Of a DNA stretch of 8,242 nt, positions 3,228-8,242 are shown piece by piece. How positions within the stretch are numbered: the first letter of the stretch is position 1; every line of letters begins with the position of its first letter. The DNA is from a virus. Lineage: Duplodnaviria; Heunggongvirae; Uroviricota; Caudoviricetes. Location: the IMG/VR virus record IMGVR_UViG_2802429231_000003; one strand, given 5' to 3'. The notes beneath the pieces were generated by a model. The model was not told the origin of the DNA and searched no databases. It saw only the letters and a program-made list of their open reading frames with translations. The position numbers were made by a program, and so were the translations under genes.

Positions 3228-3425
3228 TTATGCTGCTGGTGGTGTAACGGTAAATCCGGCTATTTTTGCCGCTTCCAGAAAACCTTCCAGGTTACTGACA
3301 AACTCGTTTTTCTGTAGCGTATAGCCGCCTGTGGCTGTGCCTTTTTCCACGTTAACCAGGACAGGTCCGGTGAAGTCCGGTCGCGCCGGAATGGTAACTG
3401 TGAAGGTCAGGGAGTGATTATGCAT
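3228..3425 (-). CDS. Hypothetical small protein (65 aa)
   Basis: ATG at 3423-3425 preceded by GGAGG; ATG overlaps the upstream gene stop (ATGCATAA). The longer track ORF to 3491 would need a non-ATG start and overlap the upstream gene by about 70 nt. Confidence 0.6.
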   Translation of the reverse strand: MHNHSLTFTVTIPARPDFTGPVLVNVEKGTATGGYTLQKNEFVSNLEGFLEAAKIAGFTVTPPAA

Positions 3426-3960
3426 GGTCTGCCTCCACATACGCGACACCCGCCACATCAAGCGCCTGTTTAAAACGGCAAAGCATTTCACGGCGTTCGC
3501 GGTACAGGGCCAGCACGAAGGGATCGAGTGTGGCTTCGATATCGGCAGGATAGCGACGGACGAAAGGCAGAAGGACGACGCCCTGACAGCGGTGTGGCGT
3601 GGAGGATTTCACCTGGTCAGCCAGCATATTCACCAGGTCATGTAACAGCCCGGTAAGCGGCTGGATCATGTCACGGGGCAATGTATCGGCCACCAGCGCC
3701 TTTGCCAGCGTGAGGCAGTATTCCAGCGTCAGGCTTTCATCAGGCCAGTACTCTGACAGATCGGATGCGGTATTGTCCGGCAGGGGAAGCGCCGTATCCG
3801 CATGGTATGCCGCTGTCAGTGCCTCCAGTGAGGTGACAAGGGATTTGCACATCGCCCGGTGTTCAGTGCGGCTGTGGTATTCCATCAGCCTGCACACCAG
3901 CGCGGCGCACTCACCTGCCAGATGAAACAGGTCAGCGCCTGCGGGGATCGGCTTATTCAT
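3418..3960 (-). CDS. Hypothetical protein (180 aa), member of the replication operon
   Basis: C-terminal 180 codons of the 619-aa track ORF; ATG at 3958-3960 preceded by a G-rich RBS and overlapping the upstream gene stop (ATGAATAA); the remaining 5' part of the track ORF is low-complexity antisense of the plus-strand genes. Confidence 0.65.
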   Translation of the reverse strand: MNKPIPAGADLFHLAGECAALVCRLMEYHSRTEHRAMCKSLVTSLEALTAAYHADTALPLPDNTASDLSEYWPDESLTLEYCLTLAKALVADTLPRDMIQPLTGLLHDLVNMLADQVKSSTPHRCQGVVLLPFVRRYPADIEATLDPFVLALYRERREMLCRFKQALDVAGVAYVEADHA

Positions 3961-4150
3961 GATGCGCCCCCGTAGCGGGCAGACGTCCAGCGAAGAAGCA
4001 GACACTTTCCCGCGCAAGCTGGCGGCGGGCTTCATGCTCGCTATCTGCGGCGATATGGTGGATTTTTGCGGTGATAGTCGGGCAATCGCGGCGAACGGCA
4101 GCGATAAGCCAGATGAATCGCGGGTGTGACGGGGTAAGGGTAGCGACCAT
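3953..4150 (-). CDS. Hypothetical small protein (65 aa), first gene of the replication operon
   Basis: ATG at 4148-4150 with GAGG about 9 nt upstream; stop overlaps next gene start; position analogous to kil-like first genes of the P4 left operon (analogy only). Confidence 0.55.
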   Translation of the reverse strand: MVATLTPSHPRFIWLIAAVRRDCPTITAKIHHIAADSEHEARRQLARESVCFFAGRLPATGAHHE

Positions 4151-4314
4151 AGCGGTGGCCTCGTGAGTAGGTTTATTAACCTCACCAGACCGCTGCTAAA
4201 CGGGGTGGTGAGACGTAACAGGGTTAGCAGACCGGCACTCACGAAACCGGCAGGCGCGAACGCCTCCCCGTTACGCCCCACCATAATACGGACGCAACAT
4301 GGCATTTTACGGAC

Positions 4315-4346
4315 AAAAAAAGACCGCGTTACAGAATGGTCGCGGT
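4315..4346 (-). terminator. Putative intrinsic terminator in the leader of the replication operon (minus strand)
   Basis: Minus-strand RNA ACCGCG-(12 nt loop)-CGCGGU followed by C and seven U (top-strand A run 4315-4321); lies between the divergent promoter region and the first operon gene. Confidence 0.45.
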
Positions 4347-4404
4347 TGTCCGCGCGAGTATTCAGGCTGCTAAACCCGGCCAGTGGATTTACACCAGCGG
4401 GAAA

Positions 4405-4434
4405 AGCATAGCGCCGGGCGGCAGTGTCAGGCAA
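4405..4434 (-). promoter_or_regulatory. Candidate sigma70-type promoter for the leader/replication operon
   Basis: On minus strand TTGCCT (top 4434-4429), 18-nt spacer, TATGCT (top 4410-4405); each hexamer is only a 4/6 match. Confidence 0.2.
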
Positions 4435-4445
4435 GGGATTTTTTT

Positions 4446-4480
4446 GTGATGTAATCACTTTCATCAGTACGTTACTGATG
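4446..4480. promoter_or_regulatory. Two adjacent operator-like dyads upstream of the plus-strand two-gene module
   Basis: GTGAT-gta-ATCAC (4446-4458) and CATCAGTA-cgt-TACTGATG (4462-4480), the latter with perfect 8-bp arms; just upstream of TATGAT (4482-4487) and the RBS AAGGAGAGG. Confidence 0.35.
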
Positions 4481-4512
4481 TTATGATTTACATCAACAAG
4501 GAGAGGCAAATT

Positions 4513-4794
4513 ATGTCTGCTGTTGAGTTGATGAACCGACGGATTCAGATTGCGGATAATGCTTTCGCCATCATCCGCATCTTGCAGGTTGACCCGTCCA
4601 TTCTCGGTAGCCAGCATCTGTATAAATACAGTCTGGCCTATATTGTGGATGGCGTCTGCGTGATGCGCTACGACAACGAACGGGGAAATGGCGACCACAA
4701 ACACATTGGCGATCGTGAATTTCCGGTCACGTTCACCAGCATACAAGACCTGATAGCCAGCTTTCAGGAAGATATCAACCATCTGAGGAGATGA
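4513..4794 (+). CDS. Small protein (93 aa), possible toxin-like partner of a two-gene module (tentatively TumE/DUF6516-like)
   Basis: ATG at 4513 preceded by AAGGAGAGG; motif RYDNERGNGDHKH; followed 4 nt later by an HTH gene with its own RBS. Family assignment is from memory of the motif and unverified. Confidence 0.65.
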   Translation: MSAVELMNRRIQIADNAFAIIRILQVDPSILGSQHLYKYSLAYIVDGVCVMRYDNERGNGDHKHIGDREFPVTFTSIQDLIASFQEDINHLRR

Positions 4795-4798
4795 CATT

Positions 4799-5158
4799 AT
4801 GAGAGTGTTAACCGTCAGGATTATGTCTATCGCCGATGCTTTCCAGACAACGATGGAAGATGCCACTCGCGCTATGTCAGGCGTGGTTGTTGGATCTGAT
4901 TTGATATTCCCCAGCGTTGAGCAGCTTGCCAAAACGATGCTTGCGCCCAATCGCTGGCAAATTATCAGAGTGATGAAAGGTGCAAAACCCGTTTCTATTC
5001 GTGAGCTGGCCCGTCTGGTAAATCGCGATTTTCGCGGTGTATACAACGATGTACAGGCACTGTTGAACGGCGGCGTTCTGGATCGGGATGGCGATAAAAT
5101 CGTATTACCGTATGACCGCGTACACATTGAGTTTAATTCGGACGACGCCGCAGCGTAA
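4799..5158 (+). CDS. Winged helix-turn-helix DNA-binding protein (119 aa), putative regulator/antitoxin-like partner
   Basis: GGAG RBS 9 nt upstream; HTH-like segment PVSIRELARLVNRDFRGVYNDVQALL followed by a wing-like segment; strong terminator downstream. Confidence 0.7.
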   Translation: MRVLTVRIMSIADAFQTTMEDATRAMSGVVVGSDLIFPSVEQLAKTMLAPNRWQIIRVMKGAKPVSIRELARLVNRDFRGVYNDVQALLNGGVLDRDGDKIVLPYDRVHIEFNSDDAAA

Positions 5159-5177
5159 CGGTACGAGGCGTTTATCG

Positions 5178-5209
5178 GGGCGTGGATATCCTCTGCGCCC
5201 TTTTTCTTT
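5178..5209 (+). terminator. Intrinsic terminator after the plus-strand two-gene module
   Basis: 9-bp stem 5178-5186/5192-5200 (two G-U wobbles), 5-nt loop, then TTTTTCTTT. Confidence 0.65.
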
Positions 5210-5273
5210 GTCCGTATGTCAACTTTTGACAGGTTGAGGCCAGACACGGGCAAGCTCTTATTCTGAATGCTTA

Positions 5274-6098
5274 TCATTGAACTACCTCCAGGCGACGGGC
5301 TAACCAGCGCTGAGACAGGCGCAGTAATTCTGTCTTGCGCTGGTGGTAGTCCTGCCTCAGTTCTATTAGCGTGATATTGGTCTGCTCAAGATAAGAAAGG
5401 TGATCGAGTTGTTCCTCGCTCATATGGTCGCGGGCTTCGCCGGTGATGCCGTTCGCCTGCGCCCACTGTTTCGCTGTCATTCCACCCAGCACGATCCGCG
5501 CCAGCATGTTCGATTCAGTTGTGTAGTGATGTGGTTGTGTGGCCTTGCCCTGTTCCTGCCTCACCACTTCCAGCGCGGCGCACATCGGCTTAAAGTAACT
5601 GGCGGCGGTGATACGGGCCTTAAGTTCTTTGCGCAGCGCAGCGGCTTTTAACGGGGCTTCCTGCTGTAATGTTTCCTCGCAGTGAATGAAGTAACGACGA
5701 ACGGCGCGGCCCTGCTCGTTGCGTTCGACCATCGCCAGCTCTTTAGCCATATTCAGCGAAAGCAAATACTCCCGGCTTCGTCTGTCCCCACCGCGTCTTG
5801 TTTCCCACGCCTTTCCATCATGGTTATTATTTGAGCTTTGATTCCTGAAATTTGAGGAATCAAAAAGGGTGTAGTCACTGTCAGCAATGAAACCATATTC
5901 CTCAATGCGGCCCTTAATCCATGTGGAAAAGTCATTTCCCACACCCAGCGCGGCATGTAACTCCTTTGCACTTACCACGCTGGCAGGCTGGCTACCGATA
6001 ATGCCGGAAATAACCGGGATGAGTTCGGCAAAATTATTCTGGTTATGGTTTTCAGGGTGAGCGATGCCCTGACCGTGAAGGCCATTAATTAATTTCAT
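5274..6098 (-). CDS. Phage antirepressor, AntA/AntB N-terminal domain family (274 aa)
   Basis: Segment YLLSLNMAKELAMVERNEQGRAVRRYFIHCEETL matches the conserved core of AntA/AntB antirepressors as recalled; AGGA RBS; 14 nt downstream of the preceding gene on the same strand. Confidence 0.75.
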   Translation of the reverse strand: MKLINGLHGQGIAHPENHNQNNFAELIPVISGIIGSQPASVVSAKELHAALGVGNDFSTWIKGRIEEYGFIADSDYTLFDSSNFRNQSSNNNHDGKAWETRRGGDRRSREYLLSLNMAKELAMVERNEQGRAVRRYFIHCEETLQQEAPLKAAALRKELKARITAASYFKPMCAALEVVRQEQGKATQPHHYTTESNMLARIVLGGMTAKQWAQANGITGEARDHMSEEQLDHLSYLEQTNITLIELRQDYHQRKTELLRLSQRWLARRLEVVQ

Positions 6099-7619: not shown

Positions 7620-7919
7620 TACGCCACCTCACGCCCTCTATCATGGAGGCCGCGCCAACCCGCAGAGGTGTACGGGAATTCGGGAGCTACCCTAGACGCG
7701 GCTTATTCTGTTACCGTCGGTTATCTTCGGTTTTGCCCATGATAGATCGTTTTCTGAACGCTTGCATTGCAAGACTGTGTGAATAATCAGCTTGTGTTTT
7801 TATACAGCTCTAATTCCTCTCATTCCTGTTGCTAGGGTCACTCCCGTGGATGCGGTTTCCACAAATTCCCCCCACCAGCGCATCAACACAATACGCTTTT
7901 CAAGATAGTTACTCCGGTT

Positions 7920-8242
7920 ATCAATTTGCGCGTAAGACCTCGCCCAATCGGGCGGGGATATAAGCGCGGTAACTGCGTAACATTTTTTGACCTTCGTCAA
8001 TATGGCTTACATTTTTCAGTGTATTTTGTAAGCCTATGAAACGCGCCTATAAATACAGATTCTATCCAACACCCGATCAGGTTGAGCTTTTGGCTCAAAC
8101 GTTCGGGTGTGTGCGTTTTGTCTATAACTCGATCCTGCGTTGGCGCACCGATGCGTACTACGAACGGCAGGAGAAGATCGGCTATACACAAGCCAGCGCT
8201 CGCTTAACAGCACTGAAAAAAGAGCCAGATTTTGCCTGGCTC
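7920..8242 (+). mobile_element. Left end of an IS200/IS605-family insertion sequence (tnpB-only type or tnpA lost), truncated by the window edge
   Basis: TnpB N-terminus begins at 8036; subterminal hairpin CGCCC-AATC-GGGCG at 7941-7954 (extendable to 7938-7957) about 80 bp upstream, consistent with an IS605-family left-end structure; left boundary approximate. Confidence 0.5.
8036..8242 (+). CDS. tnpB: IS200/IS605-family transposase accessory protein TnpB (OrfB), N-terminal 69 codons, partial
   Basis: Translation MKRAYKYRFYPTPDQVELLAQTFGCVRFVYNSILRW matches the conserved TnpB/OrfB N-terminus; in-frame stop at 7988-7990 upstream; ORF runs to the last base, so it is absent from the complete-ORF track. 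Confidence 0.8.
   Translation, partial: MKRAYKYRFYPTPDQVELLAQTFGCVRFVYNSILRWRTDAYYERQEKIGYTQASARLTALKKEPDFAWL

Follow-up and report, generated by a model that had tools for sequence, protein, structure and literature searches.

Immunity systems built around a C4 or CI antisense RNA have been described since 1990 in phages P1 and P7, and since the 1990s in P4. In the immI region of the plasmid prophages P1 and P7 the P51b promoter is followed by a1, b1, c4, a2, b2, icd, and ant1/2, and in P4 immunity the order is PLE, seqA, the CI RNA, seqC, and a left operon that ends in the alpha primase gene. In P1, P7 and P4, the C4 RNA is excised by RNase P and acts through a translational block followed by Rho-dependent termination (summarised in PMC4825925 and PMC3632133). 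At the IsrK locus of Gifsy-1, one promoter gives rise both to a short terminated leader RNA and to a read-through transcript; termination at the end of IsrK is partial, as shown experimentally, the read-through transcript is processed to an RNA of ~80 nt (STnc1160), and translation of a small first ORF is coupled to that of the gene after it (PMC4825925). Gifsy-1 IsrK has been described as a homologue of P4 SeqA, and STnc1160 has been likened to CI (PMC4825925). Icd-like genes have been reported from most Enterobacter satellites (PMC13612085).

The window analysed here is the whole 8,242-nucleotide stretch of the IMG/VR virus record IMGVR_UViG_2802429231_000003. Its leader is a fresh copy of this long-known phage cassette (P1, P7, P4), located upstream of the replication operon of a satellite-like island, and the locus is a member of a known family with a b specificity of its own. 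The minus-strand region 4151-4440 is very probably an IsrK-C4 (P4 seqA-CI; P1/P7 immI c4) antisense-RNA immunity cassette that controls an operon containing an icd-like gene and a primase gene. What can be read directly is a full-length RNA of the C4 family with two single-stranded segments, a' and b', each of which has a complementary copy upstream (a1 and b1) and downstream (a2 and b2) on the same strand, with b2 adjoining the ribosome-binding site of an Icd-like ORF. Along the minus strand, the modules thus run in the order weak promoter, hairpin with a1, b1, hairpin plus U7, C4 gene, a2, b2, and Icd-like ORF.

The Rfam C4 model (RF01695) places the C4 gene at 4201..4288 of the minus strand, matching with 79.3 bits (gathering threshold 45, E = 9e-15) over model positions 1-87 of 87, and the same model gives lower scores for P1 (68.8 bits), P7 (69.6) and P4 CI (74.9); folding, covariation and homology to P1 point to the same assignment. 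Mapping of the mature ends from the P1 annotation, by alignment with P1, gives a predicted mature RNA of about 80 nt that extends from G4282 to about C4203. Its minimum-energy fold (−46.9 kcal/mol, z = −5.07) is the family consensus, with a long closing stem around two hairpins and a single-stranded joiner. Across 21 loci this stem is 98.3% paired, and in 10 of its 17 pairs both sides have changed. One 8-nt loop, UCGUGAGU at 4244-4237, is b' and is 100% complementary to b2, and the joiner, CUGCUAA at 4224..4230, is a'. At the DNA level, TTAGCAG at 4224-4230 is 100% complementary to 4193-4199, and GGGTTAGCAG at 4221-4230 is 90% complementary to 4367-4376.

The four target sites lie on the minus strand on either side of this gene. 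Sites a1 and a2 share the sequence GUUUAGCAGC, a1 at 4375-4366 with its core UUAGCAG at 4373-4367 complementary to a', and a2 at 4201-4192 with the same core at 4199-4193; both are recognized by repetition and covariation, together with folding for a1 and complementarity for a2. Site b1, ACUCGCG at 4359-4353, is complementary to the b' loop with one G.U pair. Site b2, ACUCACGA at 4168-4161, is complementary to b' over 8 nt without exception and overlaps the Shine-Dalgarno sequence GAGG (4162-4159), which is positioned 8 nt ahead of the AUG at 4150. The 10-mer GCTGCTAAAC, which gives rise to a1 and a2, is found exactly at 4192-4201 and 4366-4375 and has no other exact copy; when up to one mismatch is allowed there are 3 matches against 0.61 expected, and the homology of the repeats to the P1/P7/P4 system, with which they covary, puts them far beyond chance.

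A preliminary description of this DNA had reported both copies of the 10-mer, which are indeed present, and had proposed that the repeats may be pairing sites. That proposal was right for the 10-mers, which are the a1 and a2 targets, and missed b1, b2, b' and the C4 gene itself. The near-complementary GTTAGCAG that it listed is there as well, and is none other than the a' segment of C4. It had further pointed to an inverted repeat, CTCACCA/TGGTGAG at 4181-4212, which can likewise be confirmed: on the minus strand UGGUGAG (4181..4187) is complementary to CUCACCA (4212-4206), the 3' strand of the C4 closing stem, and pairing between them would give a hairpin that has a2 in the loop and is an alternative to the closing stem. 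A per-locus check shows a counterpart of this complementarity in all 21 loci, with differing sequences, such as GCUAUCGCC/GGCGAUAGC in P4. One other pairing, between the 8-nt GCGACCAU (4343-4336) and its perfect complement at the icd start, AUGGUCGC (4150-4143), was considered and rejected as probable chance: a stretch of 361 nt should contain about one such pair by expectation, and P1 and P7 lack this one.

Upstream of the C4 gene, the leader has the parts expected of an IsrK/SeqA RNA. The candidate sigma-70 promoter on the minus strand consists of a −35 element TTGCCT (4434-4429), an 18-nt spacer, and a −10 element TATGCT (4410-4405), placing a putative transcription start near 4398. It matches 8 of 12 consensus positions and is not called by a consensus scanner; however, its −10 element aligns with that of the annotated P1 promoter P1c4 (formerly P51b), and the −10 T and A and the final T are invariant among seven homologues. 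Two hairpins follow on the minus strand. Hairpin 1, CUGGUG-UAAAUC-CACUGG (4379..4398), corresponds in the predicted fold to the first hairpin of the Rfam isrK and c4-a1b1 models, and hairpin 2 (4363..4378) presents target a1, as indicated by folding, complementarity and covariation. Next comes an intrinsic-terminator-like hairpin at 4315..4346 in the fold of the minus strand, in which ACCGCG (4346-4341) pairs with CGCGGU (4328-4323) around a 12-nt loop, and C and U7 (4321-4315) come next; termination here would leave an IsrK/SeqA-like RNA of about 80-85 nt. The loop is unusually large, and the consensus scanner, which allows loops of up to 8, did not call this terminator. A GC-rich hairpin followed by T5-7 is nonetheless found at the equivalent place in all 21 homologous loci, at a distance to C4 of 28-32 nt in leaders of the P1 type and 27-110 nt in those of the IsrK/P4 type, and the innermost pair of the terminator stem shows compensatory change, being G-C in the window, A-U in P1, and U-A in locus L024. 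Homology and conservation are the reasons for which we retain both promoter and terminator despite the scanner.

Two further Rfam models were compared with the leader. The isrK model (RF01394) gives 41.6 bits at 4398-4317, below its gathering threshold of 50, and the c4-a1b1 model (RF03163) gives 40.4 bits at 4411-4359, below its threshold of 46.7. With the isrK model P1 (35.1) and P7 (43.7) are also below gathering and the P4 seqA leader (60.8) passes, and with c4-a1b1 the scores are 51.0 for P1 and 55.5 for P7. Positional homology to the a1 and b1 sites of P1 is clear in a base-by-base alignment, and the predicted fold has the IsrK/SeqA architecture of two 5' hairpins, the second presenting the a-type target, and then a hairpin with a U-run.

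The preliminary description had proposed the candidate promoter TTGCCT-N18-TATGCT, which is present, with its −10 aligned to that of P1c4, and fits only 8 of 12 consensus positions, and the hairpin plus U7 at 4346-4315, which sequence and folding both reproduce and which has its counterpart in 21 of 21 loci. Folding of the leader, which it had suggested as a check, returned the two hairpins and then the hairpin-U7. Its idea that the leader may encode a small regulatory RNA was correct in that such an RNA is encoded, but the main one is not the terminated leader of ~85 nt; it is the ~80-nt C4, downstream of the terminator (4288-4201). The P4-immunity-like arrangement that it recognized also holds: the C4 model matches the window with 79.3 bits and P4 CI with 74.9, and the first ORF is 47% identical to that of P4. 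Because the two share the Rfam C4 family and this first-ORF identity, and the P4 seqA leader matches isrK, the resemblance to P4 reflects homology and not analogy.

To ask how the segments vary, we assembled 21 C4 loci, comprising the window; P1, P7, P4, D6, SJ46 and another phage; three plasmids; seven E. coli chromosomal islands; and four islands with related primases. Among them, at least 17 b' loops and 7 a' segments can be told apart. The b' loop CGUGAGU of the window is absent from the other 20 loci and, together with a primase that is not of the P4 type, is what is specific to the present copy; its a' is that of P7 and SJ46. In every one of the 21 loci the best predicted target of C4 is the b2 of its own locus, with a mean predicted b'-b2 energy of −12.7 kcal/mol for cognate and −6.3 kcal/mol for non-cognate combinations. 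When the C4 helices are counted jointly with the a'-a2 and b'-b2 contacts, pairing extends to 90.8% of cells, a share that falls to 36-49% on sliding the partners by 1-3 columns; both sides have changed in 26 of the 43 pairs, and the observed values were reached in none of 500 shuffles. Compensatory changes are seen at all eight b'-b2 pairs, all seven b1-b' pairs covary, and so do a1 and a'. Covariation of both the downstream and the upstream contacts strongly indicates that selection acts on them.

The closest relatives of the leader at the DNA level are P1 and P7. Positions 4108-4392 share 72-83% blastn identity with the c4-icd region of P1, P7, D6, SJ46 and hundreds of P1-like plasmids, and alignment with the annotated P1 and P7 maps the promoter −10, a1, b1, c4 (4282 to ~4203), a2, b2, and the icd start. 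The order of the parts and the C4 fold are the same in P1/P7 immI as in the window, b2 is at the icd ribosome-binding site in both, and both have a hairpin and U-run ~30 nt ahead of C4. The a specificity of P7 is identical to that of the window, whereas the b specificities differ, being CGUGAGU in the window, CACUAAC in P1 and CACAAUC in P7. The settings differ too. The icd gene of P1 and P7 is followed by ant1/ant2, and the icd-like ORF of the window instead by orf180, orf87, a DUF4222 gene and a DUF927 primase/helicase gene. The window, moreover, belongs not to a plasmid prophage but to a chromosomal island, which has AlpA and an int-alpA RNA. The C1 operator ATTGCTCTAATAAATTT, as found upstream of the P1 c4 promoters, has no match in the window with up to 3 mismatches.

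P4 shares features of context with the window. Its CI RNA belongs to the same Rfam family, and in both P4 and the window the RNA lies ahead of an operon whose last gene is a replication gene, in an AlpA-type context. The leader DNA is closer to P1/P7 than to P4, and the distance from terminator to RNA gene is 110 nt in P4 and 30 nt in the window. An alpha-type primase as in P4 is not present in the window, where the primase is of the DUF927 type, and the window has no sid, psu or delta genes. The Gifsy-1 locus of Salmonella (IsrK, STnc1160, orf45, anrP) differs in having an antirepressor downstream where the window has replication genes, and its published model stresses activation by the short RNA. 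Two E. coli elements, that of IAI39 (a capsid-forming PICI) and that of TUM1880 (P4-like), have the same gene order and leader type as the window but different b specificities; the window primase resembles that of IAI39 over a short part only, with 49% identity, and TUM1880 yields no match to it.

The operon that C4 presumably controls lies on the minus strand and starts with the Icd-like ORF (3953..4150, AUG at 4150), whose 65-aa product matches NCBIfam NF033153 phage_ICD_like with 73.4 bits against a cutoff of 25, and is 47% identical to the product of the ORF after CI in P4 and 30% identical to P1 Icd. Its end overlaps the ATG of the next ORF (3960) by 8 nt. The genes that follow, as laid out from Pfam, NCBIfam and PHROGs, are orf180 (3960-3418), orf87 (3491-3228), a DUF4222 gene (3215-2973), and a gene for a 713-aa DUF927 primase/helicase (2976-835; phrog_1139), all on the minus strand. 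These downstream genes overlap or abut, and no convincing minus-strand terminator was found between them. The primase has no BLASTP similarity to P4 alpha (best E = 1.1); its nearest relatives are those of Serratia oryzae (73%), Pantoea sp. BAV 3049 (72%, C-terminal part only) and Citrobacter sp. NCU1 (71%), and an exact-protein look-up gave no match. Elsewhere on the minus strand is an int-alpA RNA at 7702-7635 (43.1 bits against 35.8), followed in order by orf242, AlpA (PF05930), orf143, and an AntA-like protein (6098-5274), and a TumE / HVO_A0114 pair on the plus strand is divergent from the C4 promoter. At the end of the island, where the window also ends, the minus strand has a weak match to a short C-terminal integrase-like remnant; with this remnant only, the island may be decaying.

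The cassette as such is widespread. A C4 RNA is present upstream of the primase and on the same strand in 4 of 22 related-primase loci scanned, those of E. albertii, Citrobacter youngae, Acerihabitans and Apirhabdus. Within E. coli, 803 of 5,426 complete genomes have blastn matches to the leader, with 349 chromosomal places, including a capsid-carrying island with int, alpA, C4/Icd-like, DUF4222 and primase genes, and a P4-like satellite. These matches and the recurrence in related islands show that the cassette is common and modular. A megablast of 3900-4700 against the E. coli genomes and a search of viral contigs for the exact pattern of the b' hairpin each returned no match.

We propose the following course of events. 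Judging from P1, P7, P4 and Gifsy-1, transcription would begin near 4398 from the weak promoter, and some of the transcripts would end at the hairpin-U7, yielding the IsrK/SeqA-like RNA (about 80-85 nt), on which a1 and b1 would lie. Those that read through would contain C4, and RNase P cleavage at G4282 would release a stable RNA of ~80 nt. Pairing of its a' and b' segments with a2 and b2 would then block translation of the icd-like ORF, and Rho would terminate the untranslated RNA, leaving orf180, orf87, the DUF4222 gene and the DUF927 primase/helicase gene silent and the island not replicating. Sites a1 and b1 would compete for C4 and so determine how much of it is free.

Folding of the leader suggests an additional role for b1. 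The small hairpin CGCGG-ACAA-CCGCG (minus strand, 4341..4354), predicted from folds with and without b1 blocked, is an alternative to the terminator, and we regard it as a predicted anti-terminator because its 3' arm doubles as the 5' arm of the terminator, and its 5' arm overlaps the end of b1. The predicted probability of the terminator helix in the nascent leader is 0.04 (0.34 with a longer 5' end), and rises to 0.97 when b1 is blocked. In these thermodynamic predictions, blocking of b1 raises the probability in all 14 of the other P1-type leaders as well, and not in leaders of the IsrK/P4 type, where the terminator is predicted to form regardless. In a P1-type leader, C4 bound at b1 is thus predicted to free the CCGCG arm for the terminator, a negative feedback on read-through; if true, the b1 switch would be a small-RNA-induced terminator that provides feedback.

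Several points bear on whether some other explanation is to be preferred over the antisense cassette. Counting against the cassette, neither promoter nor terminator is called by the consensus scanner, the isrK and c4-a1b1 models are below gathering, the island may be decaying, and cleavage by RNase P, polarity through Rho and the terminator switch at b1 are steps that we infer for the present locus. The main competing idea is that the short terminated leader RNA (~4398-4315) is the principal regulator and opens the icd-like ribosome-binding site in trans, with C4 secondary. The leader does have the IsrK architecture of two hairpins and then a hairpin-U7, Gifsy-1 IsrK supplied in trans raises translation of orf45 and anrP more than 100-fold, and the authors of that work prefer direct activation of the mRNA over titration of the C4 homologue (PMC4825925); in S. 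Typhi, moreover, P4-like prophages require IsrK-like sequences (PMC3632133). Yet the isrK model is below gathering here, and the strongest and most consistently covarying contact is that of b' with b2, which joins C4 to the ribosome-binding site, so that we consider primacy of the short RNA quite improbable. Activation is, furthermore, explained equally well by absorption of C4 through a1 and b1, and activation by the short RNA is for that reason probably a second layer of the same system and not an alternative to it.

Less probable still, and given very little weight by us, is that the cassette regulates nothing, being no more than an inactive relic within an island in decay. It would fit with the short C-terminal integrase-like remnant that is all there is at the island end, with the weak promoter, and with the G.U that replaces a Watson-Crick pair at b1, but the C4 RNA scores above the functional RNAs of P1, P7 and P4, the four target sites all remain complementary, and the icd-like ORF and the entire downstream operon are open, including the 713-aa primase. 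The alternative hairpins predicted around the terminator could also be read as a purely cis-acting attenuator in the 5' UTR, in which terminator and anti-terminator compete and no trans-acting RNA takes part. This has almost nothing to recommend it, as a cis-only device leaves unexplained both a full-length C4 downstream of the terminator and the covariation, over 21 loci, of its loops with sites to either side. Scarcely credible, too, is that the stretch is protein-coding, either as an 82-aa plus-strand ORF (4163-4411) or as an N-terminal extension of a longer minus-strand CDS. There are ORFs on both strands, and annotated CDSs overlie C4 in P4 (the old 'cI') and in E. coli genomes (some of them automated 'Icd-like' calls); variation among the homologues, however, takes the form of base-pair compensation and not of a codon pattern, c4 is an RNA in the annotation of both P1 and P7, and the Icd-like domain begins only at the AUG at 4150.

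With the antisense cassette as the preferred explanation, the locus offers little new biology, the cassette being known, common, and represented by Rfam models. Its use is in annotation: the proper label here is that of a C4 RNA with a1, b1, a2 and b2 targets and an Icd-like first gene, and not that of an ORF. It also adds to the picture of one RNA cassette swapped among plasmid prophages, P4-like satellites, PICIs and DUF927-primase islands, with many a/b 'codes'.

A more speculative extension, which we think unlikely, is that the C4 of the island is tuned to a P1-like phage-plasmid. Its a' is shared with SJ46 and P7 and its b' is a near-match to that of SJ46 and D6, and therefore the island could silence the icd-ant operon of such a phage. 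If this were true, the a/b-bearing transcripts of an induced phage could absorb the island C4 and switch island replication on, and the RNA code would be a helper-phage sensor. The b' loops, CGUGAGU in the window and CGUAAGU in SJ46 and D6, differ at one position, where a G.U pair with the SJ46/D6 b2 is possible, and the predicted energy of the window C4 is −11.2 kcal/mol with the SJ46/D6 b2 against −13.4 kcal/mol with its own.

The C4 antisense RNA of the window has a b' loop (4237-4244) that differs by one base from the b' segments of D6 (L030) and SJ46 (L031), two P1-like phages with a c4-icd region, and its a' segment is the same as that of SJ46. With a G.U pair at the differing position, the window C4 could still pair with the SJ46/D6 b2 site, the C4 target (predicted duplex energy -11.2 versus -13.4 kcal/mol for the b2 site of the island itself). 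Cross-talk with P1-like phage-plasmids is thus possible.

Eight related DUF927 islands (L005, L006, L007, L010, L011, L015, L020 and L023) contain the Icd-like ORF and lack C4, and all share a different conserved leader ~90 nt upstream of the icd-like AUG. This consists of a ~35-nt hairpin, GAAGCCCGG-AGUG-loop-CACU-AA-CCGGGCCUC, in which compensatory changes are present, followed by CUNACCACCA and then by a small hairpin ahead of the AUG. The alternative leader may be another RNA in place of C4; an Rfam scan of five of the C4-less loci gave no family at E < 0.1.

In public E. coli and P4 records the C4/CI RNA gene is overlain by annotated protein CDSs (L026, 8168-8584; L027, 6934-7398; L035, 334-798), named 'cI gene product' or 'Icd-like protein' (~150 aa), and none of the RefSeq E. 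coli entries inspected annotates the RNA itself. The window has a long minus-strand ORF (3418-5277; 619 aa, 1860 nt without a stop), which spans the C4 RNA, overlies the icd-like ORF in another frame, and covers TumE and HVO_A0114 in antisense orientation. Of this ORF, just the final 180 codons, beginning at an ATG at 3960 on the minus strand, look like a real gene, and this gene has no family match.

The TumE toxin-like gene (PF20126) and the HVO_A0114-like gene (PF25212) are paired on the plus strand at 4483-5158 and diverge from the C4 promoter. In the Apirhabdus locus (L024) this pair recurs, with 85% and 79% identity, immediately upstream of the leader of C4 and on the opposite strand. 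A minus-strand gene at 5274-6098 encodes a 274-aa AntA/AntB-type antirepressor-like protein; whereas ant is downstream of icd in P1, this gene is within the alpA-side operon.

At the integrase end of the island an int-alpA RNA (RF02996; 43.1 bits versus 35.8) is present at 7635-7702 on the minus strand. Ahead of it there is no more than a short integrase-like remnant, C-terminal in type (7750-8242, minus strand), that contains ...NYLEKRIVLMRWWGEFVE... and has stop codons upstream. Searches of this region with three integrases using tblastn gave only weak and short matches, and the island integrase seems to be decayed or replaced. Directly 3' of the primase/helicase gene are iteron-like tandem repeats of two units, TGTTGTCCC (three copies) and the 21-bp ATGTTGTCCCAAAATCCCGC (3.8 copies), at 526-552 and 667-744, which constitute a candidate replication origin for the island.
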